In this document: positions 831 through 21,734 of the stretch, piece after piece
Layout: each line of letters begins with the position of its first letter
Position numbering within the stretch: position 1 is the stretch's first letter
The notes under the pieces: generated by a model
What the model saw: only the letters and a program-made list of their open reading frames with translations
What the model was told of the DNA's origin: nothing
Database searches by the model: none
Translations under genes and position numbers: made by a program
Origin: a virus
DNA: 64,000 nucleotides
Virus record (IMG/VR): IMGVR_UViG_3300024999_000086
Location: 1 to 64,000 of that record
Direction: 5' to 3' (one strand)

Positions 831-2138
831 ATGCCTGCTTCTGCAAGTGCTGCTCAAATCCGGTATCTCGAGGAAACCGTCCGCGGGACGACTCCTACTG
901 GGAACCCGACTGAGCTCAGGGTTACTGGTGAATCCTTAAACCAGAGCATCGAGTCCGCCGCCAGCCAGGAGCTCCGCGATGACCGGATGACTCCTGACAG
1001 TATTCTGACTGGCGGCCAGGTTGGTGGAGCGCTAAACTTCGAGATGTCGTTTGAAACTTACGACCCATTTCTTGAAGCGCTGCTCGCCGGAACTTTTACC
1101 ACGATTGGAACGGATAGCACTGCCGAGATCTCGGATGCTACGCTTTCCTCGGTGGATAACAGCATCAACTCTGTGGCCGGGGATATCCCTCACACCTTGA
1201 TCTCCAAGGGGCAGTGGGTCCGGATCGCTTCCGCACGGACTGCTGCAAACGTGGGTATTTACCGGGCGTCGACGTCTACCGCGGCGACGGCGAATAAACT
1301 GATCTTCGAGACTGCGGTCAAGACGGTCACCACGGATGCCACTGCCCATATGACAACCATCTCTTCATCCAGGTTGAAGAATGGGGTTGCTGATCTGCGG
1401 ACGTTCTCGATCGAGAAAGAGTTCACTGACGTTGACCAGCACTTTATGTACACCAGTTGTGGCGTTGAGTCCGCCAGCTTTGACTTCTCGACAGGGTCGA
1501 TGCTGACTGGTTCGCTGAACTTCCTCGGACAGACCAGCGAGCGGGACACTGACACGATGTTTCCGTCCGGGCTGGGTTCGGTTGTTGCAGCGACGACTTC
1601 GCCGGTTATGAACTCTGTGCAGGGAACTACGGTTCTTCTGGATGGGGCTTCTCTCGGGGAGTCTTGTGCTGAGTCTTTTTCTCTGAACATCGGGACCGGG
1701 CTCCGAGGCATTCGGTGTCTGGGTAGCGGGCTCGGGTTCTCTGACCTGATCCAAGGCACCTTTGAGATCACAGCCAACCTCAACATCTTCTTCGGCGCGG
1801 ACTCCTCGGCATCTGTCTACGACAAGATGCTGTTGAACCAGTCGCTGTCGTTCTCGATCGCTGTGTCCGATGCGAATGGAAAGGGTTATGCCTTCAACAT
1901 CGATCGGGCGAAATTGACCAGCTCCGAGATTGTGGCCGGCGGGATCAACACCGACGTTATCATGAACTTGGGCCTGACGGCAACGATTGACACGGTCTCC
2001 AACGCGATGATTAGTATCGATCGCTTTGGTGACACCGGTCCGAGCAGTGTTGCCAGCGCCAGCCCGAGCTCCTCGGTCTCTTCGAGCCCAAGCTCCAGTG
2101 CCTCTTCGAGCGCTTCTTCCAGCCCAAGTGCTTCCTAA
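831..2138 (+). CDS. Major tail tube protein with Ser/Pro-rich C-terminal tag
   Basis: GGAGG RBS; tube-like motifs (LRVTGESL, SQELRDDR, FSIEKEFTD); position before chaperone/TMP; ends SSVASASPSSSVSSSPSSSASSSASSSPSAS. Confidence 0.85.
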   Translation: MPASASAAQIRYLEETVRGTTPTGNPTELRVTGESLNQSIESAASQELRDDRMTPDSILTGGQVGGALNFEMSFETYDPFLEALLAGTFTTIGTDSTAEISDATLSSVDNSINSVAGDIPHTLISKGQWVRIASARTAANVGIYRASTSTAATANKLIFETAVKTVTTDATAHMTTISSSRLKNGVADLRTFSIEKEFTDVDQHFMYTSCGVESASFDFSTGSMLTGSLNFLGQTSERDTDTMFPSGLGSVVAATTSPVMNSVQGTTVLLDGASLGESCAESFSLNIGTGLRGIRCLGSGLGFSDLIQGTFEITANLNIFFGADSSASVYDKMLLNQSLSFSIAVSDANGKGYAFNIDRAKLTSSEIVAGGINTDVIMNLGLTATIDTVSNAMISIDRFGDTGPSSVASASPSSSVSSSPSSSASSSASSSPSAS

Positions 2139-2154
2139 CAGCCAACCTCAGTGT

Positions 2155-2190
2155 AACCCCAAGAGGACGTCAGTCCTCTTGGGGTTTTTC
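2155..2190. terminator. Rho-independent terminator after tail tube gene
   Basis: Perfect 14-bp stem AACCCCAAGAGGAC-GTCA-GTCCTCTTGGGGTT followed by TTTC. Confidence 0.85.
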
Positions 2191-2346: not shown

Positions 2347-2386
2347 GTTGTACCTCTTCAGTAAAAGTTAATAACCTAATGATCTT

Positions 2387-2438: not shown

Positions 2439-2468
2439 AACTTTAAACCTTCTACAGGAGAACTAATT

Positions 2469-3256: not shown

Positions 3257-3259
3257 TTC

Positions 3260-6200
3260 ATGGGCCAGATAGATATCGGCGTTTCCGTTTCTCAGAGGGC
3301 CCTTCAGGACATTGACAAACTTGCTGCTGGTCTGCAGAAGACTGGTAAAATCACGGATAAAACCGCAGCCAGCTTCAAGGCCGGCAGCAAGACTATTTCC
3401 GAATTTCTTCAGCAAGTAAAAGCTCTTCAGACAGGGTTTTCTGGGGTACTCAAGATGCTCCAAGCTGGAGGAGCCGGGTTTTCTGAGTATTTGACTCAGG
3501 TTCAAAAAGCTACCCGAGAATCAGCAGCACTCCGATCAGAATTCAAAAAGCTCACAGTTGACGGTTTTTCATACAAAAAATCTCTTGATGGGGTTCTCTC
3601 AACCCAGTTAGAGTTAATTCTTAACCAGAAGGCTGAGACCATCGCGTTGGGGAACCTGAGTTCCCAGATGAGTAAAGCTGCGGCACTCCGGGCCAAGACT
3701 ATTGCGTTACTCGATGGGACTGCCCTGGCCTCCGCTAAGGTTGTGGCTGTTAAAGAAGCTGAGCTCGCCATTGCTGAGGCCACGACTGTTTCAATAGCTC
3801 GTGAAGTTTTGGCTATGAAATCTTTGGTGATTGCTGAAGCTCAGTTAACAGATTCACAACGTTTGGCAGCACTGGTAACGGCCGGGCTGGCAGTTGAATA
3901 TGATGCAGTAGCTGTAGCCACTGCAGCTCAAGCGAAGGCGGCGTTAGCAGCTGGGGCTGCTTCGGCAAAGAATGCTGCTCAGAATAAAGTTGAATCTCTG
4001 GGGCTGAGAGAATTATTTGATGCCAGGGTCAAGATGAATGTGGCTACCGCAGCATCGATTCGTGCCAGAGAGATGGAAAATGCTGTGGCAGCCAAGTCAG
4101 TTGCATCAAAGACTCAGTTATTTAATATAGAAGCAGAACTAGCCTATCTTCAGGGGGCAGAAGCAAAGGCAGTTGCTGCTACGACAATCACACTTGAGCG
4201 AAAACTGGCTGTTGAGAGGTATTTATTCGAGACCGAGGCTCAGGTAACCGCAGGGACAATCGGGTTGACTCGGGCCGTAATTGAACAGACTCGGGTAGAA
4301 GCAGCTAACCAAGCTGTGGCTTTGGGCCTCGCGGTTGCCTATGATGCCCAGACTGTGGCTTATCAAGCAGCAACCGGGGCGGTGAATGCTAATCTAGGTG
4401 CGCAGTATTCAGCGGCTAAGGCTGCCAGCACTAATGCAGTGGCAAACAGTCAGTCAGCGGCAGCGACGACCCAAGCAGGTCGGGCAGCCGCAGGGGCCTC
4501 AGGGGCCTTCACGACCTACGGGTCGGCTGTCAGAGGCGCGGCCGGCGCTATGAGCATGCTCTGGTTTGCCTATGGACAGTTGCTGCCGTTGATGGCTGCG
4601 TTTGCCGGGGTCCGGGCAGCGAAGGAAGCAATGAGCCTGGGCGTGGCCTTCGAGTATGCCACGACCTCCATCCAGTCGTTGTCCAAGGACGTTGAAGGGG
4701 CGTTGATGCCTCTTGACGAGATCCAGCAGCGGTTGATGGCAATGGAGGGGTTGCGTCATACGCCGACGGAACTCGCCGCGGGGATGCGGGAATTTGCCAA
4801 GGCTGGTGTGGCCCCGGCCGAGGCCCTGCGTGATCTGGCAACGATGAGCAAGTTTGCCACGATTGCTGATATGGAACTTGGGGAAGCAATCAAGGACGTG
4901 ATCGGGCTCACCTTGGCGTTCCAACCGACGATGAAAGCAGCGACTGGGAAGTTGTTCACTTTTGCAGATGCCGCAAATATGGTGGCTGCGGCCGCAATGC
5001 TGTCTATCACTGAAGTTGATGAGATGAGCAATGCATTCTCGCATGCGGCGGAACTTGGGATCGTTTCTAAGATGCGATTCGAGGAAGTTGCCGCATCTCT
5101 GGCGATTATGGCCAATGCCGGGATCAGAGGGACAAAAGCAGCAACATCTCTCAGGACTGGTATGCTGAAGTTGCAGACGGCCGGCGACCCTGTTCATAAG
5201 ATGTTTGAGAAGCTTGGTCGTAAGTTCAATGCTTTTAACGAAGATGGGAGTGTTAAGAACGTTGTTGAGACTTTCAAAGAGTTGAATAAGGCTTTGGCAG
5301 GGGTTGCTGACGAGAAGCGGATTGCGATTTTTACCAAACTCTTTACTGCCCGATCGATGAAGGCCGGGGCAGTGCTTTCTCAGCAGGTCAAGGAGCTCGA
5401 CGCATTTATTCTGAAGCTTCGTCAGGCTGCGGAAGGGGTTGGGTTCATTGAGGAAAAGTATCAGGATCTTGCGCATACAGCCAGGGCTGAACTCGATTAC
5501 TTGAAAGTTGCTCTGGAGAAAATGCTTCTCAAACCAGTCAATGTTGAAGGGTTGTCCGAAGCTATATCATCAATTAGAATGGTTGTTACTGATATCAGCC
5601 CAATATTTGCTGTTTTCGCTTCGGTTATCGGGGCTATTGGCCATGACTTCATTAATTTGATTGAGTTGGCAATAAGTTTTGTTAAACAACTGTGGGATTT
5701 GGTTGATGGTGGAATTTCGTTTGCAGAAGTTGTAGATTTGCTGAAGACCAGGTTTACTGACCTTGTAGGATTTATTTCAAATCTTAATATTGTAAATCTG
5801 TTTAGAGAACAGTTTTATTCAATTGATGTATTATTCATAAATTTAGGCGCGACAGCAAAAACAGCCGCTGTAACAATCCAAGGAGTTTTTGAGTCTTTGG
5901 GTTCTATGCTGATGGTTATCTTTGGTAGCGCAATCAATTGGGTCATTGACAAAATCTTCTACATTCCTGACGCGATCAATCGAATGATTACGATGATCGG
6001 TCAGGCGACGAAAGATATTCCACTGTTGTCAAGTTTTTATTCTCCGGCAATGTCGGCTATTGGGGATAACCTCACTCAAGCGGCCTCGGCAGTAAAAGAA
6101 GCCTTTAAGATTGATCTTTCTGCTGAGAATGCTCAACTCAAAGAGTCTGGGGATCTTTATGCTTCAAGGATTGCGGCTATCAAAGCGTCCACAGATGCCT

Positions 6201-9200
6201 TGTTGGCAGAAAAAGCGGCACATTATGAAGCTTCCATAGCGGTTGACCGACTGGCCTCTTCTTATGGTGTTCTAGCTGATCAACAGCAGAGACTCCCATC
6301 TTTGGGGAATCCAGCCGCGGGTGGAAATCTAGCATCAAAAACTCTGGGGTATTACTTTGGCGCAGGCTCTTCAGGTATGTCTCAAGGATCTGCAGAATCT
6401 CCAGACTGGTTGAAGGACAGCGAGCAAAAACTACTGGATAATCTGCTGCCAATGCGGAAGGCTCGGGAGGAGTATGAGAAAGGTGTAGAAGCAATTCTAG
6501 CCCTGCAAAAGAAGCTCGAAGGGACTGCACAGGCTATATCAAAGGCTGATGTTGGCACGATGATGAGTAACCTGGCAGCCAAAACTATTGGCGCTGGCAA
6601 AGCGTTTAAAGGTTCTGCTGAGAGTATTAGAGACTTTAATACTAGAGTCCGTGAAGCTTTTGGGGACACTTCTCAGTCGTATCTTTCTGAGTATCAAAAG
6701 TTACAGGAGAAGATATCAGACACATCTTCAAAGTTAAAGTCTGCTGCTGAGAAGGAGTTTGGTATTGGCACCCCTGAAACAGCTGAACGGATGAAGGTCA
6801 TTAACTCTGAGATGGTCAAAGCCTACGAGAATGCTGATAATCTTGAGAAGGTTGCTCTTGATGATTTCAGTAAAAAGATGGAGGAGGCTTTTGGTGATGC
6901 CTCTACTGGAAAGCTCTCTGCTTTTGATAAGATGATGGAGAAGATCGATGACACCGTTATTAAGATGGAGTCTGAGATCAAGAAAAAGTTTGAGGGAGAC
7001 GACAACGGTCTGGCCCGGATGAGAAAAGAGCTTGGGCTCTTAAAAACTGAAGCTCAGGAAACGGCTGAAGAACTCCGGAAATCAGATTTGAAGAATAACC
7101 TAGAGGAGATTGAAGCGGCTTTTGGCAATCATGCCCAGCGCAATATGTCAGAGTTTGACAAAGAACTGGCAAAGATTAATAAAACTTATACAGACCAGAA
7201 AGACGCGATTGCCAAGAAATACCCACTGGAACAGGCGACCAATGCCACGATTGAAGATCGAGCCGCAGCAATGGCAAAGCTTGATGAGCAGTATCAATTG
7301 GCAATCCAGAATTCTGACATCCTTATCAAAAAAAGTAATAACCTGTGGGACGGATTTGCTCTCGGGGTCAAGGACGCGATCGCAAGCACCAAGACTCTGG
7401 GGGAAGTCGGCTACGAAGTGGCTGGGGAACTGAAGAATGCTTTTCACGACACCTTCGTCGCCGCAATCAAAGGTGACTTCGAGAGCATCGGCGACCTTTG
7501 GGACAGCCTTCTTGACCGGATGCTGGACCTGTTCATCAATTGGATCGCTGATCTTATTGCTCGCTGGGCTATGGCCCAGATAGGCAACGTGATCATGGGC
7601 GCTTTCGGGAGCGGCGGAGGCAGCGGCTTTGGTGCAGTTCTTGGCTCCTTGGGGGCGGCTCTGGCTGGGAATCGGGGCGGCAGTAACGGTGGCGTTGGCG
7701 CAGTTGGTACACTGGGCACCGTAGCAGGCACCGGTTATCAGATGTACACTGGGGAGAGTCTTTCGGCTGCGATTGCCAAGGGGCTGTATAATTATGCCTT
7801 CCCGAGGTCAACCATTGCTCCATACACTCCAGGGTCAGGGCAACCGTTGGGCAGTACAGGTTCTCCTTCTGGGGCTTCTCCAGGAGCAGCTAGCGCTTGG
7901 CAGACGAGTCAGAATACCTATGGAGTTTTGTCTTCACAGGCGGGGTCTCTGGCGCCTCAGGCGACCACGGCGCTGGGTTGGACCTATGGGGCAACCCCGA
8001 CTGTGGCCAGCCAAGTGGCCCAGTATGGTTCCTATGGCGTACTGCAATCTCAAGCTGCTGCGCCTGTAGCTCAGTCAGCAGCCCCCGCGGCGTCAAGTTT
8101 CAGCTCCTACGCAGGCATTATCGGGGCAGTTGTTTCCATGGCAATCATGGCGTACAGCAGTCAGAAAAAGAAGATGATGCCGGACGAAGCCGACATGTTC
8201 AACAAGGCTGGGTTCCGGCCGGAGACCTTTGCTTCGCTGATCGGTAACGAATTTCAGAAGACGGTCATCCCTTATTTCGGAGAGACGAATGCGAAATGGG
8301 ACCAAGCCTCGAATTCACTGATCATGCTGGCAGACGCCGATAAAGCAAAGTCCGCCCGGGAGGATAACTATTTCAAAAAAGACCCCTATGTGACGCCCGG
8401 TGCCCTTGGTATGCAGTGGGATGAGACTGCTCCTACTTGGAAAAAGAGTAACTCGGCAATACGAGAAGCGCTGCAGTTGTTGTTTGATGATGCTCAGTCT
8501 TTGGAGCGCATGGCGCTTAATATTGGGAAGCCAGAGACATTTGAGGAATTTGCGGTAGCCCTCGAGAAGCTGAATGTCGCTATTGACCCGTCTACGGCCG
8601 AAGGGCTGTGGGAGTGGGCCGAGGCCTCGACTCCGTCCTTTGACAAGATGAAAAAGTCTTTGACGGACCTTAACCTGAGCAGTGGTGAAATGCATCGAGC
8701 ACTGATCCTGCTCGAAGATGCAGCCGGCTCGGCGTCAGGTTCCTCTGAAGAACTCGAGAAGTATTTGCGATCGCTGGGAAAAACACAAGAAGAAGTGTCC
8801 CAAGTTATGGCCGATTACACCGGATCGGCAATCAGCAGGATGAGGGCTGCCGGGGAAGAATACCTGGCGGCTACAAATCCGGTGCTTTATTCTTTGTCTA
8901 TGATTTCTCAGCAGATGCAGGAAGTCTATACTGACACTTCGATGCTGACCAGCGCCGTGGGCGTGTTTGGGGACGAAGCCAACACAGCGAGCAATGCAAT
9001 CTACACGTTGAACTCCGTAATGGGGTCTTTGGACTATTCTCTGCAGGATTTGGATTCCTCGGCTACTCAGGCGGGGAATGCCATCGGCGACGCCGCCTAC
9101 GATATTCAAGCAGCGCTTCGCGTGATCACTGAGGGCAGCATATCGACCGGCACCACTGGGGTCGGGACTGCTGAAGGTTCGGCTACAGGAGGACTTCTCC

Positions 9201-10549
9201 GCGGCGGGTCCGGGGTCAGGGATGATCTGTACATCGGGACAATCGCCGGCCGGCCACAGATCGCAATGGGCGGTGAGTACGTCATCAATCAGCGCTCTAC
9301 TCAGAAACACCTCTCGCTGCTGGAAGCGATCAACGCTGACAAATATCTGATTGGGGGCCCAACCCCGCCGGCAAGTCCGCCCGGGAGCACTCCGAAGCCG
9401 GGATCCCTGCTGAGCGGTGTCAGATCATCAAAGACTCCGGAGGATCTGCAGTCGCTGGTTGATATGCTGGATGATGTGACCCGGTCCATGCGCTTGATGA
9501 GTGGCACAGACCTGGCTAAGGAGATCTTAGAGATTCAGTATCGTTTCTACGATATGATCGAGGAGGCGAAGAAGCTTGGCGCCTCGGAGCAAGATCTGGC
9601 AAAGATCCGACGCCTGCAGGCGATGGAGATCGAGGAAGCAAACAAGAAGGTGGCCCAGGCCCGGTTCGAGTTCATGCGTGGGATCAACGACGAGATCAAC
9701 AATTTCGGGATGACTGATCTTGAGATTGCTCTGCGCGGGACTCGTCGAGAGATGCAGGAGCAGATCGCTGCAGCGAAAGCTCTGGGGCTCGGTGAGTCTG
9801 AACTGATGAAGATCAGGCAGTTGCAGCAGCTTAAGGCCGCTGAGCTTATTGAGGCCCATCGTAAAGAACAGGCAGAGTTCATGCTCAACATCACTGACCA
9901 GATCAAGATGATGGGTATGACGGAGTCAGAGAAGTCCTTATTCCAGCTTAATCGTGAGATGGAGGACATGATCCTTCAGGCGAAAGAGCTTGGTCTGGGT
10001 GAGTCTGAACTGGCAAAGATCCGGGAGCTCTACGGACTCAAGTCTTTGGAGGTGATGAACCAAGGATTGCTGGAGGCGGTCACGGCGATTGGATCGTTTA
10101 AGGATTCCATGGGTGGGATCGAAAGTGCTGCGTTGAAGTCGTCCACAGCGCAACAGAAGCTCTTCGACATCCTGACTCAGGCCAAGGCCGGCGACTTTAA
10201 AGGCGTTGAGACTATCGGCGAGGTCCTGAAAGATATCTCGATCGATAAGTCGAAATATGCTACGGCTGCGGACTACGCTCGGGATTATTGGAAGACGATG
10301 GGCGCGGTCAACCAGATCGAGAAGTTGACGAATAACAAGATCGCAGGCATCAACACAGAAGTTCCAACGATCAGCAGCCGCGACGCCGAGGCCAACCGCA
10401 AGAGCCAAGACGAGGTCAATACCAGGCTGGACGACCTCAGGGCGTCAGTAGTTGCCGGCAACGTCCAGAACTTGAAGAATACCCAGAAAACTGCCCGGAT
10501 GCTTGACCGATGGGAATCCATTGGTATGCCGGCAACCAGGGTGGCGTAA
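3260..10549 (+). CDS. Tape measure protein (2429 aa)
   Basis: Ala-rich helical protein with TP901-type core (MANAGIRGTKAATSLR), GGEYVIN motif, follows the chaperone pair. Confidence 0.92.
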   Translation: MGQIDIGVSVSQRALQDIDKLAAGLQKTGKITDKTAASFKAGSKTISEFLQQVKALQTGFSGVLKMLQAGGAGFSEYLTQVQKATRESAALRSEFKKLTVDGFSYKKSLDGVLSTQLELILNQKAETIALGNLSSQMSKAAALRAKTIALLDGTALASAKVVAVKEAELAIAEATTVSIAREVLAMKSLVIAEAQLTDSQRLAALVTAGLAVEYDAVAVATAAQAKAALAAGAASAKNAAQNKVESLGLRELFDARVKMNVATAASIRAREMENAVAAKSVASKTQLFNIEAELAYLQGAEAKAVAATTITLERKLAVERYLFETEAQVTAGTIGLTRAVIEQTRVEAANQAVALGLAVAYDAQTVAYQAATGAVNANLGAQYSAAKAASTNAVANSQSAAATTQAGRAAAGASGAFTTYGSAVRGAAGAMSMLWFAYGQLLPLMAAFAGVRAAKEAMSLGVAFEYATTSIQSLSKDVEGALMPLDEIQQRLMAMEGLRHTPTELAAGMREFAKAGVAPAEALRDLATMSKFATIADMELGEAIKDVIGLTLAFQPTMKAATGKLFTFADAANMVAAAAMLSITEVDEMSNAFSHAAELGIVSKMRFEEVAASLAIMANAGIRGTKAATSLRTGMLKLQTAGDPVHKMFEKLGRKFNAFNEDGSVKNVVETFKELNKALAGVADEKRIAIFTKLFTARSMKAGAVLSQQVKELDAFILKLRQAAEGVGFIEEKYQDLAHTARAELDYLKVALEKMLLKPVNVEGLSEAISSIRMVVTDISPIFAVFASVIGAIGHDFINLIELAISFVKQLWDLVDGGISFAEVVDLLKTRFTDLVGFISNLNIVNLFREQFYSIDVLFINLGATAKTAAVTIQGVFESLGSMLMVIFGSAINWVIDKIFYIPDAINRMITMIGQATKDIPLLSSFYSPAMSAIGDNLTQAASAVKEAFKIDLSAENAQLKESGDLYASRIAAIKASTDALLAEKAAHYEASIAVDRLASSYGVLADQQQRLPSLGNPAAGGNLASKTLGYYFGAGSSGMSQGSAESPDWLKDSEQKLLDNLLPMRKAREEYEKGVEAILALQKKLEGTAQAISKADVGTMMSNLAAKTIGAGKAFKGSAESIRDFNTRVREAFGDTSQSYLSEYQKLQEKISDTSSKLKSAAEKEFGIGTPETAERMKVINSEMVKAYENADNLEKVALDDFSKKMEEAFGDASTGKLSAFDKMMEKIDDTVIKMESEIKKKFEGDDNGLARMRKELGLLKTEAQETAEELRKSDLKNNLEEIEAAFGNHAQRNMSEFDKELAKINKTYTDQKDAIAKKYPLEQATNATIEDRAAAMAKLDEQYQLAIQNSDILIKKSNNLWDGFALGVKDAIASTKTLGEVGYEVAGELKNAFHDTFVAAIKGDFESIGDLWDSLLDRMLDLFINWIADLIARWAMAQIGNVIMGAFGSGGGSGFGAVLGSLGAALAGNRGGSNGGVGAVGTLGTVAGTGYQMYTGESLSAAIAKGLYNYAFPRSTIAPYTPGSGQPLGSTGSPSGASPGAASAWQTSQNTYGVLSSQAGSLAPQATTALGWTYGATPTVASQVAQYGSYGVLQSQAAAPVAQSAAPAASSFSSYAGIIGAVVSMAIMAYSSQKKKMMPDEADMFNKAGFRPETFASLIGNEFQKTVIPYFGETNAKWDQASNSLIMLADADKAKSAREDNYFKKDPYVTPGALGMQWDETAPTWKKSNSAIREALQLLFDDAQSLERMALNIGKPETFEEFAVALEKLNVAIDPSTAEGLWEWAEASTPSFDKMKKSLTDLNLSSGEMHRALILLEDAAGSASGSSEELEKYLRSLGKTQEEVSQVMADYTGSAISRMRAAGEEYLAATNPVLYSLSMISQQMQEVYTDTSMLTSAVGVFGDEANTASNAIYTLNSVMGSLDYSLQDLDSSATQAGNAIGDAAYDIQAALRVITEGSISTGTTGVGTAEGSATGGLLRGGSGVRDDLYIGTIAGRPQIAMGGEYVINQRSTQKHLSLLEAINADKYLIGGPTPPASPPGSTPKPGSLLSGVRSSKTPEDLQSLVDMLDDVTRSMRLMSGTDLAKEILEIQYRFYDMIEEAKKLGASEQDLAKIRRLQAMEIEEANKKVAQARFEFMRGINDEINNFGMTDLEIALRGTRREMQEQIAAAKALGLGESELMKIRQLQQLKAAELIEAHRKEQAEFMLNITDQIKMMGMTESEKSLFQLNREMEDMILQAKELGLGESELAKIRELYGLKSLEVMNQGLLEAVTAIGSFKDSMGGIESAALKSSTAQQKLFDILTQAKAGDFKGVETIGEVLKDISIDKSKYATAADYARDYWKTMGAVNQIEKLTNNKIAGINTEVPTISSRDAEANRKSQDEVNTRLDDLRASVVAGNVQNLKNTQKTARMLDRWESIGMPATRVA

Positions 10550-10550
10550 T

Positions 10551-12131
10551 ATGAAAGTCATAAAGCCTATCGCGGTTACGGATGCAACCCTGTATGGGTG
10601 TTCAGAGCCTGAAGATGACTATGCTGCCTGGGCAATTGGGACGACCTATGGTGCCGGGGACAAGGTTATAGTTCTCAGTACGCACAAGATCTATGAGTCT
10701 CTGCAGGCGGCAAACACCGGAAACGATCCGACGACCGCAACAGACTGGTGGCTGGATCTGGGCCCGACGAACCGCTGGAAGATGTTTGACAAATCAGTGG
10801 GGTCGGTCACTGCCGCGAATAACTTCCTGATCGTGATGGTCAAACTGACCGATGCTGATTTTGTGGACTCTCTGGCTCTGCTGGATATCGTTGCCAATCA
10901 CGTAGTAATTGAACTCTTGGACGATGCTGTTTATGGGACGATGAGCCCAAGTGCCTCGGCCTCAGCAACAGCGAGCCCGTCAGGGGCAGCAAGTTTGAGT
11001 TCTTCTGTGTCGTCTAGCCCGACGACAAGCCCCTCGAGTAGCGCGTCTTCGAGCCCGAGTACATCAGCGTCTTCGAGCCCAAGCTCTTCGCCATCGTCCA
11101 GCCCGACGACGAGCCCGAGTACATCAGCGTCTTCGAGCCCGAGTTCTTCACCTTCGTCCAGCCCGACAACGAGCCCGAGCGCTTCAGTATCAGGGAGCCC
11201 GACGACTAGCCCAAGTTCGTCAGAAAGCGCAAGCCCGAGTTCTTCAGCCAGCAGCAGTTTGAGTGCTTCAACCAGCCCGTCTGGAGGACCAAGTGTCAGC
11301 GCCTCTGGGGGGCCCAGCACCAGCTCCAGCCTGTCAAATAGCCCATCAGCATCGCCGAGTGCCAGCGGGGGCAACTATCTGACCGACGGTGACGGGAACT
11401 TCTTGGTTGATGGGGCGGGCAACAGGTTGAAAGACGGCGGCGTCGGGGATGACGGTGGGGCCTCGTCTTCAGCTTCGTCGAGCGTATCCTCAAGCCCGAC
11501 GACAAGTTTGAGTTCTTCTGTGTCGTCTAGCCCAACAACAAGCCCGAGCTCGTCAGAGAGTGCAAGCCCAAGTTCGTCAGCCAGCGCCAGCCCTTACCCG
11601 GTTGGAGTGCTCTGGCACTATGAGACTGATTTGATATCTGCTCCGGATGAGACTGACAATGACTGGTATCAATATTTCTTCTCAGCACTGGAGAATCTCG
11701 AAGATTATTTGCTTCTGAATATGCCGACTTACACCAATGCAATCCTTAAAGTTACTCTAACCGGGACGACTGTAGAGGTGGGGACGTTCGCATTTGGAAA
11801 GTCAGTTTACATTGGGGAGACTCAGTGGGGGCTGCAGTTGGGTATACTGGACTATTCGACAAAAGAGACTGACGACTTTGGGGTGACTTCTGTTGTTGAA
11901 CGGGTTTATGCCGACAAGATGGAGTGTGATCTTTTTCTGGAACACAGCATGGTGAGGATGGTTAAGAAATTCCTTTCAAGTGTCAGGGCTACCCCCTGCG
12001 TTTGGATGGGCACCGAGGTCAGTACATTTTCCGAGTTAACAATTGTTTATGGATTCTATAAGAATTTTGATATAGTACTACAAGATTACGGTGGGAGTAT
12101 CTGCTCTCTCGAAATCGAAGGTTTAACTTAA
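10551..12131 (+). CDS. Tail-tip/baseplate-type virion protein with ~215-aa Ser/Pro/Thr insertion
   Basis: Directly after TMP; N-part (W..GTTY..GD.V...HKIYESL, GPTNRWKMFD) and C-part (DYSTKETDDFG, YGFYKNFDI) look like one conserved phage protein interrupted by low-complexity repeats. Confidence 0.7.
   Translation: MKVIKPIAVTDATLYGCSEPEDDYAAWAIGTTYGAGDKVIVLSTHKIYESLQAANTGNDPTTATDWWLDLGPTNRWKMFDKSVGSVTAANNFLIVMVKLTDADFVDSLALLDIVANHVVIELLDDAVYGTMSPSASASATASPSGAASLSSSVSSSPTTSPSSSASSSPSTSASSSPSSSPSSSPTTSPSTSASSSPSSSPSSSPTTSPSASVSGSPTTSPSSSESASPSSSASSSLSASTSPSGGPSVSASGGPSTSSSLSNSPSASPSASGGNYLTDGDGNFLVDGAGNRLKDGGVGDDGGASSSASSSVSSSPTTSLSSSVSSSPTTSPSSSESASPSSSASASPYPVGVLWHYETDLISAPDETDNDWYQYFFSALENLEDYLLLNMPTYTNAILKVTLTGTTVEVGTFAFGKSVYIGETQWGLQLGILDYSTKETDDFGVTSVVERVYADKMECDLFLEHSMVRMVKKFLSSVRATPCVWMGTEVSTFSELTIVYGFYKNFDIVLQDYGGSICSLEIEGLT
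10944..11592 (+). repeat. Coding tandem repeats encoding SPS/SPTT/SAS units
   Basis: Repeated AGCCCGAG/AGCCCGACGAC units; ~60-bp tandem duplication near 11050-11170; ~40-bp direct repeat at ~10991 and ~11503. Confidence 0.9.
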
Positions 12132-12943: not shown

Positions 12944-12978
12944 CAATGAAATCTACAACAAATAGTCGGAGAACCGCT

Positions 12979-14585: not shown

Positions 14586-16639
14586 TTTTTCTGATACTCC
14601 TTTTTCCATCATTGGCTCTGGCCTATTCGCCTGTTGCCAGGTTCGACGTAGTTCCATACCAGCGGATTGAGTATGGGGCTTCACTTAATGTCGGAGTTGC
14701 GGCATTTTCTAAGCCAGGGATTGCATCAGTTGACTTTGTTGCATCTGGCCAGGGGTATAGTGGAGGAACAAAGACAGCAACCTCCATGACCTTGAATTCG
14801 ACCACGGATACCTGGGAATACTGGGTTAATTTCCCCGCCTCTGAGTTTACCGGAAACGGGGCTATTACTATCACCGCCACCGTTACCGACAACGAGGCCA
14901 ATGAAAGAGTATTGACCCTATCTTTGCTGGTCTATGGGGCCTCTGCTTTCACTCCAGTGACAGCTTGGGTTGATCCAGCGGGCAACAATACTACCTGCAT
15001 GGTAAACGATGAAGGGGCACCATGCTTGACCGTAGCCGGGGCAATAACCAAAATCCAAGCGGCAAATGGCGGCGTTTCGGACGGTGCGATTATCTATCTC
15101 GAGGAGGGCACTTACTCGGTAGCCTCTACATCAGCAAGCACGTCAAGCCAATGGTTAACAATCACGAAAGACGATACTGCGGCAGTTGCAAATGTAATAA
15201 TCAATACTGGACAGATAACAACCGGGTATCTCAAATATGATAGCGTGACTCTGCAAAGTCTGGGCAGTGCCCTGTATGTCGCCAATAGTAGTTCAACACG
15301 GTTATGGACGAATAGTTGTAGAAGAATTGGTTCTGGAAGAGGTACTGTCAATACAAACCCAGTGCATCTCAGCGACGAGAACAATCATTATAGTACTAAT
15401 GACTACACCTATGATGCTGACTATGCCTATAGGAAGGCAGCATTGGTCAGAGGTGCCACAATCTCGTTTATTGGTAATGATGTATTTGAGAATACACCTT
15501 TTATTGTCAACTGTACTGCTGATGATGTCGATAATATTGACAACCCGTCATGGCACGCAGATGCATTTCAAACTTTTACAGGGACAACGCTTGCCCCTCC
15601 GGATAACAGAATTGTCTATAATTACAAGGCAACAGACTTACATTATGAAGCTATTTTTATGCGGTCTGATACTGGAACTGCAACGGACAACGCATTTGTA
15701 AATGTATTTCTTGAGATGCGCGATCCTTGTACAGTTAATGAAACTGGCAGCTGTGTTTTTACTGATTTTCAGCTTTATTACAACTGGGATCACCTGATAA
15801 TGTGGAACAATACATTTATAGGTGGACATAGCACAATATCACCAACATCAACCCTTACAAATGTTTCCTGGGTTGGTAATGTTTTCTGGCAGTTTGCTCA
15901 AGACACAGACATCAGCAACCTGGCTATTACTCAACTTGCGAATGGGAATGCTGGTGGGAACGAGGTTTTGTATAACCATTATGAGTATGTAAAACTTGAG
16001 ACAGGTGAGTGCACACCAAATAGTAAATTTACACAAGCGGGGTATACCTGCCCAAAAAATTATACAAAACGTCCTGACTCTGGAGCAACCGCTACCTATT
16101 CAACAGGCGGGGGGGTAACTGACGGCGACTATACATCGGAAACCTTTACTTATCCTGTTGGTGACACCCTGACATATAAATTCTCTCCACGAGTTCCAGT
16201 TGATATTTACAACGTAGCTCGCGGAACCTTGTCCAGCATTGGGGCCGTAGAGCCGGTGTTTTCTGGGCCCGTTCGTTCAGCCGGTGCCCCGTCTTCGACG
16301 GTCAGTTATGCGGCAACGACTACGATATCATTGTTTACTGCAACAACCGCAACATGCAAATATGGGACTGTAGCAGAGACTGACTATAGTTCAATAGCTA
16401 ACACGTTTGAGTCTACTGCATCTCAGTGGCATACTCAAACAGGGGTGGCTGTGTCTCCAGGAACTAACACCTTTTATGTAAGATGTACTGATGGATCTCA
16501 TGAAAATCTTACTGACTATGTTATCAGCTTTAATATGTTGAGTCAAAGTTCTGCCCGAGTGGGATTAAGTTTGACTGGTACCGGGAAGTTTACTCCCTCA
16601 ACGATAGGAACCGGGAAGTTGATAATCTCAGCGCCTTAA
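14567..16639 (+). CDS. Secreted Ig-like + right-handed beta-helix protein (adhesin/depolymerase-like)
   Basis: Signal MGKYAVIFLILLFPSLALA|Y; ITATVTDN Ig-like, WVDPAGNN..PCLT, IYLEEGTY, WHADAFQ, NNTF motifs. Confidence 0.65.
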   Translation: MGKYAVIFLILLFPSLALAYSPVARFDVVPYQRIEYGASLNVGVAAFSKPGIASVDFVASGQGYSGGTKTATSMTLNSTTDTWEYWVNFPASEFTGNGAITITATVTDNEANERVLTLSLLVYGASAFTPVTAWVDPAGNNTTCMVNDEGAPCLTVAGAITKIQAANGGVSDGAIIYLEEGTYSVASTSASTSSQWLTITKDDTAAVANVIINTGQITTGYLKYDSVTLQSLGSALYVANSSSTRLWTNSCRRIGSGRGTVNTNPVHLSDENNHYSTNDYTYDADYAYRKAALVRGATISFIGNDVFENTPFIVNCTADDVDNIDNPSWHADAFQTFTGTTLAPPDNRIVYNYKATDLHYEAIFMRSDTGTATDNAFVNVFLEMRDPCTVNETGSCVFTDFQLYYNWDHLIMWNNTFIGGHSTISPTSTLTNVSWVGNVFWQFAQDTDISNLAITQLANGNAGGNEVLYNHYEYVKLETGECTPNSKFTQAGYTCPKNYTKRPDSGATATYSTGGGVTDGDYTSETFTYPVGDTLTYKFSPRVPVDIYNVARGTLSSIGAVEPVFSGPVRSAGAPSSTVSYAATTTISLFTATTATCKYGTVAETDYSSIANTFESTASQWHTQTGVAVSPGTNTFYVRCTDGSHENLTDYVISFNMLSQSSARVGLSLTGTGKFTPSTIGTGKLIISAP

Positions 16640-16743: not shown

Positions 16744-17415
16744 ATGGAACTTCAAGCCCCGTATCACTTGTTCGGAAATGTCCGAGGCAACAGCTATGTC
16801 AGGGTCGACCCGGTCACCGGCCTTGTGACGTTCAAAGGGCTGGCCAGGCCTTATCTCGGGCTGTGGATTCCATTGACAGCCATGGAGCCGACGTCGGCCC
16901 CGGATTACGACGCGACCAACTTCGGGTACCTTTTCCCGAACAACAGCACCACAGAGTTCCTGACCGCGAACATTGCCCTGGACCATGACTACGCCCCCGG
17001 GACGTCGCTTTATCCCAGGATACTCTGGCACCAGGCTGCAGCGACGCCCCCGGCGTGGAAGATCTCCTACCGGTGGTTGAATCCTGGTGAACAGGTGGGC
17101 GCCTTCACCACGGCGACGGCAACCGGGCAGGAGTACACCTACATCCAAGGCACAATCCTGCAGACATCATATTTCCCGACTATCCCGGGCGCGGGCAAGA
17201 AGATGGGCAGCATTCTGCAGGTCAAGCTCTACCGCGACGACGCGGTATTGGCCGGCGATGCTCTGGCGATCGCCTTTGGCGTGTTCAAAAAGGTCGACAG
17301 CCTGGGGTCGCAGACGTTGACGTTGAAGAGTGTCCCGGGCGCCCAGGTGTCGTCGTCACCGTCAGCTTCAGCTAGCGCCAGCCCGAGCGCTTCACCATCA
17401 GCTTCAGCTTCCTAA
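16744..17415 (+). CDS. Putative virion protein with Ser-rich C-terminal tag
   Basis: AGGAG RBS; beta-sandwich-like body; ends VSSSPSASASASPSASPSASAS. Confidence 0.7.
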   Translation: MELQAPYHLFGNVRGNSYVRVDPVTGLVTFKGLARPYLGLWIPLTAMEPTSAPDYDATNFGYLFPNNSTTEFLTANIALDHDYAPGTSLYPRILWHQAAATPPAWKISYRWLNPGEQVGAFTTATATGQEYTYIQGTILQTSYFPTIPGAGKKMGSILQVKLYRDDAVLAGDALAIAFGVFKKVDSLGSQTLTLKSVPGAQVSSSPSASASASPSASPSASAS

Positions 17416-17426: not shown

Positions 17427-18164
17427 ATGAGTCAAGTATTGATTGCGCCGACAACGGCGGCAGCGGAATACAAGATGAAGATTCCGCAGAACCGGTTCAA
17501 CATGACGATCCAGGTCGACGCCAGCATCGGCGCCGCGGAGGTGGTTGAACTTAAGCAGTTGGATACGGATCAGCAGTGGCGGGCGATTGTTCTCGGCGGG
17601 GCACCCCTGGTCCTGTCAGCGTCCAACACTCAAATCAGCTTCACCGCGACGAATCTGATCAAACTGGTGAAGCCCATAACTGTTGCGGCCGTCGGCGTTC
17701 AGTTGCTGTCTGATCTTGGGTTTGGTGAGAACGAGGCATCTGATAGTGCCAGCACGTCAGCATCGAGCAGCGCGTCCTCGAGCCCGAGCTCAAGCGCGTC
17801 CTCAAGCCCGACGACTTCAGCTTCGTCCAGTCCGACGACTTCGCCGTCCTCGAGCGCTTCTTCAAGCCCGAGCGCTTCGCTGTCCGGCAGCGCTACGACA
17901 AGTCCGAGTTCGTCTGCGAGCGCAAGCCCGAGCGCTTCACTGTCCGGCAGTGCTACGACGAGCCCGAGTGCTTCAGCTTCAGGCAGCCCGACGACCAGTG
18001 CGAGCTCAAGCCCGACGACAAGCCCAAGCTCTTCGGCATCGTCCAGCCCGACGACTAGTGCGAGCTCTTCAGCTTCTTCGAGCCCGACGACTTCAGCTTC
18101 AGGAAGCCCGACGACAAGTCCGAGTTCTTCGGCGAGCGCTTCTCCGTCAAGTTCACCGTCTTGA
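17427..18164 (+). CDS. Small beta domain plus ~140-aa mucin-like Ser/Pro/Thr tail
   Basis: ~100-aa globular N-terminus then SASSSPTT repeats up to the stop codon. Confidence 0.75.
   Translation: MSQVLIAPTTAAAEYKMKIPQNRFNMTIQVDASIGAAEVVELKQLDTDQQWRAIVLGGAPLVLSASNTQISFTATNLIKLVKPITVAAVGVQLLSDLGFGENEASDSASTSASSSASSSPSSSASSSPTTSASSSPTTSPSSSASSSPSASLSGSATTSPSSSASASPSASLSGSATTSPSASASGSPTTSASSSPTTSPSSSASSSPTTSASSSASSSPTTSASGSPTTSPSSSASASPSSSPS
17737..18161 (+). repeat. Coding Ser/Pro/Thr tandem repeats
   Basis: AGCCCGACGAC / AGCCCGAGC units, same repeat vocabulary as 10944-11592. Confidence 0.9.
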
Positions 18165-18179: not shown

Positions 18180-19655
18180 ATGCTGAGCGTGGTTATCCCA
18201 TCCCGCAATGAGCAGGGATATTTGGAGAAGACTATCGAATCCCTCTTGGCCAACGCCGAGGGGGAGATCGAGATTATCGTTGTGCTCGACGGCTGGCTTC
18301 CTGAGAAGCCAATTGAATTTCCAGTGAACGAGCGACAGCAAGTTCACTGGATTCACAACCCGGAGGCGATCGGGCAGCGGCAGGCGATCAACCAGGCAGT
18401 CCGGACGGCTAAAGGCAAGTACATAATGAAGCTGGACGCGCACTGTGCGGTCTCGAAGGGCTTTGACTTGATCTTGGCCAGAGACTGCGAGTACGACATG
18501 ACGATGATTCCCCGGATGTACAACCTGGACGTCGTGACTTGGCAGCCGAAGCTGCACAAACGCACGGACTATATGTACATCGGCCTGGTCGACGGCAATC
18601 TCCGGGCCTGCTATTACAAGAAGCAGCCTGACAACAACAAGATGATCGACGACACCATGTGCTGCATGGGGCCCGGGTTCTTTCTGCACTTGGAGAGGTT
18701 CTGGGAACTCGGCGGCTGTATGGAGGAACACGGCGGCTGGGGGCAGCAGGGCGTGGAAGAGGCCTGCAAGGCAGCACTCAGCGGGGGCCGGATGGTGGTC
18801 AACAAGAACTGCTGGTTCGCTCACTGGTTCCGCGGCGGCGGGGTGCCAGAAGGCCACAAGAAAGGGTTCCCCTACCATATGAGCCAGCACTCGGTCAATA
18901 TCGCTCGGGCTTACAGCAACGACCTCTGGATGAACAACAAGTGGCCGAAACAGGTCCGGACCTTCCAGTGGCTCCTCGACAAATTCAATCCCCCCGGGTG
19001 GAGCAAGGAAGCTATGGCCAAGATCGGGAATCCCGCGGAAGTTTCAGTGGCGCCGGCCTCCTCGCCGGCACGGGCGTTCTTCAATCACATGATGTCCGGG
19101 AATAAGATGCCTACGTGGATGGGTTACACGGTTATCAAATATCCCAACGACCTCATCCTTTATCAGCAGAAACTCTTTGAGCAGAAGCCAGACGTCTTGG
19201 TCGAGGTCGGGACCCACAAGGGCGGCTCGGCCCTGTTCTTTGCTCAGATGATGGATTTGATCGGGCACGGGCGGGTCATCTCAATCGATCGGTCGCACGA
19301 TAAATACCCTCTGCCGCAGCATCCGCGGATCACTTATTTGACCGGGAGGTCGACGGCGACGGAGACGTTGGGAAAGGTCAAGGAGATGGTGAACGGGAGT
19401 TCCGTGATGGTCGTGCTGGACGGTGATCACAGCCGAACGCAGGTGAAGCGTGAGCTGGTACGGTATTCCGACATCGTCACGCAGGGCCAGTACCTCGTCG
19501 CCGAAGACACGGTGATGGGGGAGATGGGCATGCCTAATAACCCGGCCGAGGCCGTCGAGTGGTTTCTGAAGAGGACCGACAAAGTTCGCCGAGAGCGGCC
19601 GGAGGAGCAGTTCATGTTCTCCTGTAACAGTGGGGGCTGGCTGAAACGGATATGA
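18180..19655 (+). CDS. GT2-family glycosyltransferase fused to CmcI-like (sugar) O-methyltransferase
   Basis: LSVVIPSRNE, IIVVLDG, MKLDAHC, GGWG..G.E; C-half KYPNDL..YQ, VEVGT.KGGSA, VVLDGDH, YLVAEDT. Confidence 0.88.
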   Translation: MLSVVIPSRNEQGYLEKTIESLLANAEGEIEIIVVLDGWLPEKPIEFPVNERQQVHWIHNPEAIGQRQAINQAVRTAKGKYIMKLDAHCAVSKGFDLILARDCEYDMTMIPRMYNLDVVTWQPKLHKRTDYMYIGLVDGNLRACYYKKQPDNNKMIDDTMCCMGPGFFLHLERFWELGGCMEEHGGWGQQGVEEACKAALSGGRMVVNKNCWFAHWFRGGGVPEGHKKGFPYHMSQHSVNIARAYSNDLWMNNKWPKQVRTFQWLLDKFNPPGWSKEAMAKIGNPAEVSVAPASSPARAFFNHMMSGNKMPTWMGYTVIKYPNDLILYQQKLFEQKPDVLVEVGTHKGGSALFFAQMMDLIGHGRVISIDRSHDKYPLPQHPRITYLTGRSTATETLGKVKEMVNGSSVMVVLDGDHSRTQVKRELVRYSDIVTQGQYLVAEDTVMGEMGMPNNPAEAVEWFLKRTDKVRRERPEEQFMFSCNSGGWLKRI

Positions 19656-20122
19656 AAAAATCAGTCCGACGATTCGTCAAACAACAGGTAGACAGGCTGG
19701 CCGCGGCCGGCGACTGTCTGGAGATCGGATCCTACGATGTTAACGGCAACCTCCGGCAGATCCTAGCCCACACCAACTACACCGGACTTGACATGCGCGA
19801 GGGGACCAACGTCGACGTCGTCGCCAACAGCAACGACTTGCCCTTTCCGGATAACCATTTCGACGTCGTCGTCTGCGTCGAGACCTTTGAACACGACAAG
19901 TTCTTCTGGAAGACCGTAGCTCAGATCAGACGGGTCCTTCGTCCTGGCGGAGTGGTGATTTTAACGGCGCCGAGTATCGACTTCGGCATCCACGAATATC
20001 CCAGTGATTACTGGAGGTTCACCGAGGCCGGCCTGAAGTCCCTTATCGAAGACTGGTGTGGGGAGATCGTTTCACATCACCATGACCGAGCAGCATTCGT
20101 TGCTGGGAGAAAATATGTCTGA
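19652..20122 (+). CDS. Class I SAM-dependent methyltransferase
   Basis: LEIGSYDVNG, YTGLD, FDVVVCVETFEH, VLRPGG, DYWRFT. Confidence 0.88.
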   Translation: MKKSVRRFVKQQVDRLAAAGDCLEIGSYDVNGNLRQILAHTNYTGLDMREGTNVDVVANSNDLPFPDNHFDVVVCVETFEHDKFFWKTVAQIRRVLRPGGVVILTAPSIDFGIHEYPSDYWRFTEAGLKSLIEDWCGEIVSHHHDRAAFVAGRKYV

Positions 20123-21734
20123 TATTAGCTTGATATATTACACAGATAACCAACTTGACCCGTTTCTTTTCGCAAAGTGCCAAGAGAAACTTCTTGAGGC
20201 TGCCCAAGGAAAGCGAATCATTTCTGTTTCGCAGAAGCCTCTTGACTTTGGCGACAACATCTGCGTTGGGAATATCGGCCGGAGCCACGAGTCGCTGTTT
20301 ACCCAGGTCCTCACCGGGGCAAAAGCGGCGACCACGAAGTATGTGGCACTGGTCGAGCACGACTGCCTGTACTCTCCGGAGCATTTCAACTGGCAGCCAC
20401 CAAACGACTTTGTTTTCTGGTACAACGTCAATCACTGGTTCGTGCAGTGGGGCGGTAGCAACACTGGGCAGTACAGCTACCTGCGGCGGAAGGTCCTGTC
20501 CAATCTGATTTGCGAGCGTAACCTCTTGATCGAGGCCGTGGAAGAGAAGTTGGCAATTCTCAAGCAAGGCGCCCAAATCCGAAAGGGGTTGCCTGGGGCT
20601 TGTGAGCCTGGGGTCTGTTCAAATGAAGACGCCTTCGTCGGGATTGTAGGTAAGGACTTGGGTAAGGTCCCTGGAGACTATAGAGCCAGGGGCTTTTCAA
20701 CGGTGGTGCCAAACCTTGATATCCGGCACGGGCAAAACTTCTCTGGCGGGCGGATTGCCAAGAAGAAGTGCTACTCCCTGCCGTACTGGGGGAGCTTCCA
20801 CTCTGTAATGGGCGTGATCCCTCCCGGTGAGTGGTATCAGGAAGCGACTGTGCATGGCGTTCAGATGCCCACTCGTCGGACGAACGATACGAACGAGAAG
20901 CGATGGCACAAGTTCATCAAGCCTCTGATTGAGGGCCCCATAGTGGGGAGGATGACTGACTTGGGCTGCAACGCCGGCTTCTATTGCCGAAAGTTTTCTG
21001 ATCTGGGGTTCAAAGCAACCGGGGTCGAGCGCGACCCTGAGGTCCTTCGTCACAACTACTGGTGGGAAGAGCACGAGCCCAAGGGTGTCAGAGTCGTCGA
21101 GTCCGATATCAACGACTATTCTCCATCCTGCTCTGATTATGTTCTCCTTGCCAACGTCCACTACTGGCTGACGCCGGCACATCTGCAGACGTTGGTGCAA
21201 AAGCTCAACGACCGAGCTTTGAACGTGATCTTGATCGGGAGGTACAACACGGCCTCGGTTCACAAGTCGCCGGCTGACCTGCAGTTTTTGCGGAAGCTCT
21301 TCAGAGGTTGGCAGGAGAAACGAGTGATCAAGGGCGTCAAGCACTTTTCGGTGTTGTTCCGGAACCCGACGTTGATCTCAAGAAGTGTGGATGATCTGTT
21401 CACGAAACAGCAGTTTTTTAAGAGCAGTCGCTTTTTACCTTCATATTCTCGGTTGATTGATGATATACTGGAAGGCAAGAACGGCAATTATCAGGATTCC
21501 GAGTATCACAAATATCTTCTTTGGCGAGGATTTAAAGACAGTACTGAACTTCTCAAGCGCCACGTCGACCTTGTCGCCAGTATTCAACAGGAGGGGACCA
21601 AGGATCCGCTGTTGATCGGGCGAGTGGTCAATGGTAAATACGAGCCGGACAGACTGGTCGACGGCGACCATCGGCTGATCGTTGCAAAGAAACTGGGTAT
21701 TCAAAATGTTATTTGTCGTGTCGTCAAACAGTAG
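20115..21734 (+). CDS. GT-A glycosyltransferase + methyltransferase + ParB/Srx-like fusion
   Basis: N: LIYYTDN..IISVSQKP..ALVEHDCLY; middle: DLGCNAGFY..GVERD; C: RLVDGDHRLIVAKKLG. Confidence 0.75.
   Translation: MSDISLIYYTDNQLDPFLFAKCQEKLLEAAQGKRIISVSQKPLDFGDNICVGNIGRSHESLFTQVLTGAKAATTKYVALVEHDCLYSPEHFNWQPPNDFVFWYNVNHWFVQWGGSNTGQYSYLRRKVLSNLICERNLLIEAVEEKLAILKQGAQIRKGLPGACEPGVCSNEDAFVGIVGKDLGKVPGDYRARGFSTVVPNLDIRHGQNFSGGRIAKKKCYSLPYWGSFHSVMGVIPPGEWYQEATVHGVQMPTRRTNDTNEKRWHKFIKPLIEGPIVGRMTDLGCNAGFYCRKFSDLGFKATGVERDPEVLRHNYWWEEHEPKGVRVVESDINDYSPSCSDYVLLANVHYWLTPAHLQTLVQKLNDRALNVILIGRYNTASVHKSPADLQFLRKLFRGWQEKRVIKGVKHFSVLFRNPTLISRSVDDLFTKQQFFKSSRFLPSYSRLIDDILEGKNGNYQDSEYHKYLLWRGFKDSTELLKRHVDLVASIQQEGTKDPLLIGRVVNGKYEPDRLVDGDHRLIVAKKLGIQNVICRVVKQ

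Follow-up and report, generated by a model that had tools for sequence, protein, structure and literature searches.

Ser-rich tags on four late proteins and an adjacent block of GT27-like glycosyltransferase and methyltransferase genes in an uncultivated tailed phage: a candidate system for virion O-glycosylation

Bases 831 to 21734 of the viral contig IMGVR_UViG_3300024999_000086 (IMG/VR; 72,108 bp) comprise late genes of a tailed phage, four of which encode Ser-rich tags, followed by three genes for glycosyltransferases (GT) and methyltransferases. Unless otherwise mentioned, coordinates refer to the window, i.e., bases 1-64000 of this contig. Tracts rich in Ser, Pro, Thr and Ala were searched in the six frames of the whole contig. 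The initial annotation had proposed that the tags are O-glycan acceptors for the adjacent enzymes. The features concerned are the following (aa, amino acids; TMP, tape measure protein; ppGalNAc-T, polypeptide N-acetylgalactosaminyltransferase; SAM, S-adenosylmethionine; AF2, AlphaFold2).

831..2138, + strand: tail tube protein, 435 aa, core residues 1-399 (PF18906 Phage_tube_2, E 1e-32; phrog_290, E 2e-63)
2028..2135, + strand: tube tag, C-terminal, 36 aa, 58% Ser, last residue Ser (translation and six-frame scan)
10551..12131, + strand: post-TMP tail protein, 526 aa, probable start ATG 10551 (phrog_6278, E 2e-68)
10941..11606, + strand: insert of ~220 aa that splits the conserved post-TMP protein (translation and scan)
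16744..17415, + strand: g16744, 223 aa, C-terminal tag at 17329-17412 (28 aa) (translation and scan)
17427..18164, + strand: g17427, 245 aa, a ~100-aa domain followed by a 144-aa tag at 17730-18161, up to the stop codon
18180..19019, + strand: GT27-like (ppGalNAc-T-like) GT-A catalytic domain, residues 1-280 of a 491-aa fusion, gp18180 (fold and profile)
19113..19655, + strand: CmcI/rhamnosyl O-methyltransferase-like domain, residues 312-491 of gp18180 (PF04989)
19652..20122, + strand: gp19652, small class I SAM methyltransferase, 156 aa (PF08241, E 5e-13, and related families; phrog_32762)
20115..21734, + strand: gp20115, three-part protein of 539 aa (AF2 model, pLDDT 90.1)

The Ser-rich tracts are confined to exactly four late open reading frames (ORFs) of the + strand, and both the translations and the six-frame scan confirm what had been announced for four late proteins. 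The three C-terminal tags (tube, g16744 and g17427) all finish in Ser, as had also been noted. The other four rows of the scan are 20-26 aa long, lie on the - strand and have different compositions. Among the four proteins the tag length ranges from 28 to 199 aa and the Ser share from 46 to 58% per tract. The insert of the post-TMP protein is made of two tracts, at 10941-11375 (145 aa) and 11445-11606 (54 aa), with a Gly/Asp-rich spacer between them, and the match to phrog_6278 falls in two stretches of the 306-position profile. No match was found for g16744 in Pfam, PHROG or NCBIfam. No signal peptide is present in the translation of any of the four tagged proteins.

The tracts have a marked periodicity: Ser or Thr is found at +/-4 in ~90% of the positions and at +/-2 in ~70%, while Pro and Ala occupy odd positions. 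All six Ser codons are used among the 215 Ser codons of the tracts, thus these are not one slipped DNA unit. Imperfect DNA repeats (60-89% identity) are common to the tags. The tag of g17427 is 144 aa long in this phage and 177 aa long in a 90%-identical relative (L001); since tag lengths differ between relatives, the tracts evolve fast in length, their composition being kept. The tube tag is retained in three relatives (75-86% identity).

The first enzyme, gp18180 (18180-19655), matches two Pfam families, PF00535 (E 1e-17) and PF04989 RMNT_CmcI (E 4e-42). Residues 1-280 were modelled with AF2 (pLDDT 89.8). When this model was compared with the PDB by Foldseek, the matches listed, down to rank 50, were all ppGalNAc-Ts (E 7e-15 to 1e-12). 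The VIA fold comparison, made against 48,161 representative chains, gave mouse GalNAc-T1 as top match (Z 26.7, rmsd 2.4, 264 of the 280 residues aligned); Toxoplasma GalNAc-T3 (TgGalNAc-T3) reached Z 24.5 and the next GT-A just 18.4. A profile built from 27 family members matches GalNAc-Ts over ~250 positions (E 1e-12 to 1e-6), while its alignment with other GT2 structures covers the first ~90 positions only. Eight residues are invariant in these 27 members: D86, H88, W187, G188, E193, G202, G203 and H215. D86-x-H88, W187-G188...E193, G202-G203 and H215 align to LDAHC, WGGENxE (the Gal/GalNAc-T motif), CGG and VGHVFR of GalNAc-Ts, respectively, i.e., both the DxH metal motif and the distal His of GalNAc-Ts are conserved. 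The N-terminus (MLSVVIPSRNE) has no hydrophobic segment and the domain is soluble. On the basis of fold and profile, the GT domain of gp18180 is thus nearest to the polypeptide GalNAc-transferases of mucin biosynthesis.

The assignment of the C-terminal part is clear: residues 312-491 score 144.8 bits against PF04989 (cut-off 23.2), and the CmcI structure 2bm8 matches the family profile of gp18180 (E 1e-14). The match to the rhamnosyl O-methyltransferase NF045824 (E 7e-25, 87.7 bits) is far below the equivalog cut-off of 400 bits. The other NCBIfam matches, i.e., weak ones to polysaccharide synthases, are limited to the first ~90 residues. The initial annotation described gp18180 as GT2 plus CmcI-like O-methyltransferase; the second half of this description stands, and the first is sharpened to GT27-like by fold and profile. 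No second GT27-like gene was found in the contig. The search of BFVD with gp18180 gave otherwise unnamed or generically named proteins of uncultured phages, and an actinophage GT (Gordonia phage Sixama) appeared at rank 40 only (TMq 0.54).

The start of gp19652 overlaps the stop of gp18180 by 4 nt. For the third enzyme gene, GTG 20058 had been proposed as the start; ATG 20115 is the most likely one instead. Residues 236-419 of gp20115 correspond to a class I SAM methyltransferase (Methyltransf_11, E 3e-4), and the best fold matches, which include NodS and MtfA, reach Z 16-18. Residues 1-235 form an alpha/beta domain with an invariant E-H-D motif and a weak, sub-threshold match to PF00535 (GT2; 22.3 bits vs. 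23.3), and may thus be a GT-A domain. At the C-terminus a DGDHR motif is present and ParB_N (PF02195) is matched weakly (21567-21737, 16.9 bits vs. a cut-off of 26.3). The description of gp20115 as a fusion of GT-A, methyltransferase and ParB-like parts therefore holds for the methyltransferase, the two other parts having weak, sub-threshold matches. It must be noticed that the Foldseek and VIA lists for gp20115 are occupied by the methyltransferase domain, that the PDB profile search gave methyltransferases only and that every score of a protein atlas search was under 0.9.

Members of the gp20115 family are co-located on contigs with the GT-CmcI family. In two homologues of gp20115 (P0144 and P0136) the sequence opens with part of a GT27-like domain, namely its C-terminal half (MH.DRFWELGGCDE...WGQQG...). 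They are either fused proteins or genes called in truncated form; in both cases they link the two enzyme families. Shared contigs and these two members argue for a same pathway. The translations, read directly, contain no membrane segment in any enzyme of the block. No GT-B (PF00534) was found in the contig, the same search matching in 14 of the 14 control genomes.

It can be asked whether such a block glycosylates and methylates phage DNA bases in order to evade restriction. Phage GTs are classically DNA glucosyltransferases, according to PMC12619734, and gp20115 has its weak ParB_N-like C-terminus beside a methyltransferase. Nevertheless, the methyltransferases belong to small-molecule/O-methyl classes and not to the DNA N6, N4 or C5 ones; the genes lie inside a late structural operon; the GT has the fold of a peptide GalNAc-T; and the association with Ser-rich tracts described below would be left unexplained. 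Furthermore, no ThyA-like gene (PF00303), i.e., no thymidylate-synthase-like hydroxymethylase, was found in the 72 kb, an absence that is unproven since the contig is ~79% complete. Modification of DNA is thus regarded as highly improbable.

Relatives of gp18180 are numerous: 1983 database proteins at E 1e-5, nearly all of them unnamed metagenome proteins, and 216 IMG/VR contigs that encode one. When gp18180 was compared by tblastn with 50,697 deposited phage records, nothing was found at E 1e-5; a limit of E 1 gave 42 records, all with generic GT2 genes that cover less than half of the domain each, and none listed under Mycobacterium. The GT is thus absent from the cultured phages searched. 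Among 185,579 GTDB species genomes, a relative of the GT was found on 27 contigs, all from metagenome-assembled genomes (MAGs) of scattered phyla (7 of them Planctomycetota/PVC, i.e., Planctomycetota-Verrucomicrobiota-Chlamydiota), and 9 of these 27 contigs have a long tract.

The association between GT and tracts was analysed in both directions. A tract was defined by a 24-aa window with at least 10 Ser/Thr, at least 3 Pro and at least 83% Ser, Thr, Pro, Ala, Gly, Glu or Asp. In the forward test, tracts were sought within 10 kb of the GT homologue in 83 viral loci. A tract of at least 60 aa is present on the strand of the GT in 51 of the 83 loci, and one of at least 100 aa in 44; on the opposite strand the count is 0/83. 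The proportion is 23/26 for loci with both flanks of at least 8 kb vs. 28/56 for the others (one locus without a GT-domain match being omitted), so that many of the loci without a tract are accounted for by truncation. The median distance from the GT to the closest tract is 2.7 kb. Clustering of the GT domains at 90% identity gives a tagged locus in 49 of 71 clusters, and clustering at 70% in 31 of 36.

The control consisted of 80 tail-module loci (0.98 Mb) obtained by alignment of the tube family. A tract is present in only two of these 80 loci, both from close relatives of this phage, and the GT was found in none of the 50 control records searched (Fisher p = 1e-17). For the reverse test, 80 loci were chosen by a DNA pattern for SPSxSPSxSPS. 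These were mostly short matches or matches in another frame: 72 are without a tract of at least 60 aa (and were kept as comparison rows) and 8 are with one. Three of these 8 loci (L123, L139 and L149) had been marked as long (SPSx)n before the GT search. The GT was found in exactly 3 of the 41 searchable records, i.e., the three marked ones, and in 0 of the 38 others (p = 9e-5). Tags and GT thus co-occur in both directions in unrelated viral contigs (the initial annotation had asked for this comparison across related phages), and tagged homologues common in phages devoid of GTs were not seen.

The tracts of other loci have the motif (S-P-S-x)n, and their carriers are unrelated to the tagged proteins of this phage. 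Many of these carriers are 500-1900 aa long and contain a lectin domain; among 10 tagged proteins sampled, 4 have a ConA-like one. Carriers that are unrelated, some of them with a lectin domain, indicate that the tag is portable.

Some further loci deserve mention. An (SPSx)n tract of 1220 aa stands right behind a GT homologue with 35% identity in the MAG contig L103 (11766-15789), which bears the label Candidatus Roizmanbacteria; GT homologues are also present in several other MAG contigs with a CPR (candidate phyla radiation) label, and may belong to cells or to phage contigs binned by mistake. The three pattern-selected records with long (SPSx)n (G008, G021 and G029; loci L234-L239) have two GT27-like paralogues each, one of those in G021 being interrupted by an in-frame TAG.

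Relatives of this phage offer natural contrasts. The record G045 (73 kb) has in common with it the terminator, the tube (52% identity), the chaperone, the TMP, the post-TMP protein and g12143, and no GT was found in it. Its tube stops at the core and is untagged. Its post-TMP protein (316 aa) matches residues 1-128 and 366-526 of the query with ~14 aa between them, i.e., the insert is absent. The tube homologues of the cultured phages Pan1, R5C, PaMx74 and ctIqW946 are also untagged and finish at the core. The single-protein tube search yielded 4 loci only, and two of the records (G043 and G044) end before the position of the GT and are thus uninformative on it. Fold, co-occurrence and the GT-less relative together support the proposal that the Ser-rich tags are the probable acceptors of the adjacent GT and methyltransferases.

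Another relative, G001, has proteins 86-90% identical to those of this phage. Its major head protein (399 aa, phrog_3922) is untagged. Beside the capsid gene lies that of a 225-aa protein, in which a tract of ~60 aa is internal; the tube tag is 43 aa long. Since this capsid is untagged, the coat would be mainly a feature of the tail and connector. In G001 the tail chaperone genes are separated from the tape measure gene by a 390-aa ORF (L113, 10661-11833) that has no counterpart gene in the window; by its motifs it resembles a TnpB/IS605 OrfB-type protein.

The enzymes could also glycosylate Ser-rich proteins that are mainly not virion parts: g16744, g17427 and the long proteins with lectin and tract of other phages would be mucin-like proteins, released or located on the host surface, the short tube tag being incidental. 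g16744 and g17427 indeed have neither a family assignment nor a proof of virion location, and the size (500-1900 aa) and lectin domains of many tagged ORFs in other loci fit such a role. On the other hand, neither g16744 nor g17427 has a signal peptide. Moreover, family and position place the tube (PF18906) and the post-TMP protein in the virion, and their tags use the repeat vocabulary of the other two and have DNA repeats in common with them; the tube tag has also been conserved in the three relatives mentioned above. A mainly non-virion role is thus judged improbable.

The surroundings of the block were also considered. The contig is linear according to IMG/VR, with a completeness of ~79% (CheckV). 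Its 3' end contains the large terminase, the portal and an interrupted head protease, and its 5' end an interrupted ORF, the tail terminator and the tail tube. The assembly break is thus inside the head module (window 1-415 and genome 71332-72108, i.e., L111 7332-8108), and the stretch with scaffold, capsid and connector is absent. Comparison with G001 suggests a loss of ~5 kb, with genes for the scaffold, a 148-aa structural protein, the major head protein, the 225-aa tagged protein and a 277-aa protein. The order of the late genes on the + strand is: tube, chaperone, tape measure, post-TMP, four ORFs without family, g16744, g17427, the three enzyme genes and more ORFs. From g16744 to g22426 the genes are tightly packed: the first two are followed by 11 and 15 nt of spacing, and the next junctions overlap by 4, 8, 22 and 4 nt. 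The remaining row of the feature list is:

3260..10549, + strand: tape measure protein, 2429 aa (matches to phrog_9696 and phrog_1272)

The position of this gene marks the next one as that of a tail-tip protein. The tape measure gene contains a 76-nt direct repeat, 74% identical, at 9745-9820 and 9952-10027 (207 nt apart). A tRNA scan found none, and megablast of 831-21734 against deposited phages gave no close DNA relative.

Seven late proteins (g12925, g13812, g14555, g21713, g22426, g25019 and g25704; window 12925-16639 and 21713-26378) have hydrophobic N-termini that resemble signal peptides or lipoprotein signals, and none of them matches a Pfam, PHROG or NCBIfam family. Such starts are unusual for tail-module genes. 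They bear on the alternative that we consider the most serious, precisely because these seven neighbours may mean that part of the operon is envelope-directed: the tracts would be sugar-free disordered spacers or hairs, and the enzymes would act on a glycan of the host envelope (lipopolysaccharide, S-layer or capsule) or on a small molecule, e.g., to block superinfection. Glycans on the tags are a prediction; besides, PF00535 enzymes are mostly polysaccharide builders, and the first ~90 residues of gp18180 have the weak NCBIfam matches to polysaccharide synthases. This alternative would nevertheless leave unexplained both the same-strand pairing of the enzyme with long (SPSx)n in unrelated phages and the relative that is at once tagless and GT-less. 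Moreover, the fold favours peptide-modifying GalNAc-Ts over polysaccharide GT-As by 6-8 Z units, and the enzymes of the block have no membrane segment. Sugar-free tracts with an envelope-directed block are thus held to be unlikely.

The interpretation that we favour, and regard as fairly probable, is that the phage module O-glycosylates and methylates the tags of virion proteins in the cytoplasm. Late in infection, the GT27-like domain would transfer the first sugar from a host nucleotide sugar to Ser or Thr of the tags, i.e., to hydroxyl groups of the disordered (Ser-x)n. A further sugar may be attached by the N-terminal domain of gp20115, and the glycan would be O-methylated by the fused CmcI-like domain, by gp19652 and by the methyltransferase domain of gp20115. 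Assembly of the tagged subunits would then give a tail covered by a brush of methylated glycans. The tube tag occupies the position at which Ig-like decoration domains are displayed in other siphoviruses, and it is this position that leads us to expect the brush on the assembled tail. Shielding, adhesion or mimicry may be its purpose.

Several points weigh against this interpretation: (i) the glycan on the tags is a prediction from sequence, fold and co-occurrence; (ii) the WGGEN motif of GalNAc-Ts reads WGQQG (WGQQGxE) in the gp18180 family; (iii) gp18180 has neither the ricin-type lectin domain nor the membrane anchor of true GT27, which is why it is called GT27-like and not GT27; (iv) the N-terminal domain of gp20115 is a putative GT-A domain, with sub-threshold GT2 matches; (v) no nucleotide-sugar enzyme of the epimerase/dehydratase family was found in the contig; (vi) 32 of the 83 GT loci, mostly truncated, are without a long tract, and so are 3 of the 26 with full flanks; (vii) the loci are not phylogenetically independent; (viii) given the seven neighbours with signal-peptide-like starts, the enzyme block may instead be directed to the envelope; (ix) Pro is found at a frequency of ~0.2 at each of positions -3, -1, +1 and +3 in the tags, i.e., the sequon of GalNAc-Ts, T/S-P-x-P according to bioRxiv 10.1101/2020.06.25.171371, is not reproduced. 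The idea of tags as mimics of T/S-P-x-P was dropped, since the tags have no directional Pro preference.

The closest known system is the virion O-glycosylation of mycobacteriophages. Capsid and tube C-termini bear glycans in these phages (PMC12619734), and the association of a GT with a methyltransferase has been read as a sign of glycosylated virions (PMC13313380). The elements described for this system (Freeman et al. 2023, as cited in these two papers) are one or more phage GTs, a nearby methyltransferase and a C-terminal extension of the tube as acceptor, the modification taking place in the cytoplasm before or during assembly, as is proposed here. The gene set of this type, i.e., GT, methyltransferase and C-terminal extension of the tube, is also present in this phage. 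The differences are that: (i) gp18180 has no sequence relative in the 50,697 deposited phage records at E 1e-5; (ii) the tags measure 28-199 aa and one is internal; (iii) no tag is found on the capsid of the nearest relative, contrary to the pattern with both capsid and tube that is described in mycobacteriophages; (iv) nothing links this phage to actinobacteria.

With eukaryotic GT27 the module shares the nearest fold and profile, the DxH motif, the distal His, the W-G..E and GG positions and adjoining acceptors made of Ser/Thr/Pro-rich repeats. It differs by the missing lectin domain and anchor, the fused methyltransferase, WGQQG in place of WGGEN and an identity of ~20%; in addition the enzyme is viral and would be cytoplasmic, and the tags are Ser-based, not Thr-rich. 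As regards the methyltransferase, PF04989, the family of rhamnosyl O-methyltransferases and CmcI, clearly includes the C-terminal domain of gp18180, but this domain is fused to a GT and stays far below the NF045824 cut-off.

In the serine-rich repeat glycoproteins (GspB, Fap1 and PsrP), (Ser-x)n repeats are glycosylated in the cytoplasm by the soluble GtfA/GtfB, which are encoded by adjacent genes. Those initiators are GT-B enzymes, whereas this contig is without a PF00534 match; those systems also have an accessory Sec, while the substrates here would be virion proteins. A second parallel is A064R of the chlorovirus PBCV-1, a GT-GT-methyltransferase that decorates the capsid glycan. Both viruses encode a soluble multi-domain GT with a sugar methyltransferase that acts on a virion protein independently of the host machinery, the glycosylation being predicted in the present case. 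Unlike this phage, PBCV-1 is a eukaryotic virus, with an N-linked capsid glycan and different GT families.

The literature searched gave no published description of a phage that combines a GT27-like enzyme with Ser-rich tags on its virion, and glycosylation of phage virions has so far been reported for actinobacteriophages only, as far as the surveyed part of this literature says. The wider proposal, to which we give an even chance, is that many uncultivated tailed phages have their own mucin-type system, in which a soluble GT27-like initiator, fused in the present case to a sugar O-methyltransferase, puts methylated glycans on portable (Ser-x)n tags of tail tubes, tail tips, connector-side proteins and lectin fibres, leading to mucin-coated virions, and that these initiators are the closest non-eukaryotic kin of the GalNAc-Ts of animal mucin initiation.

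Enzyme and substrate are both small and soluble, thus the pair is directly testable by co-expression. If the proposal is true, it would provide a compact and soluble pair of tag and enzyme for glyco-engineering in bacteria, and the origin of GT27 enzymes would become a question. Sugar-coated tails, built by kin of the animal mucin-initiating enzymes, would then be widespread among environmental phages, and the models of the tail surface would change for adsorption, aggregation, adherence to mucus and biofilm, and shielding from antibodies.

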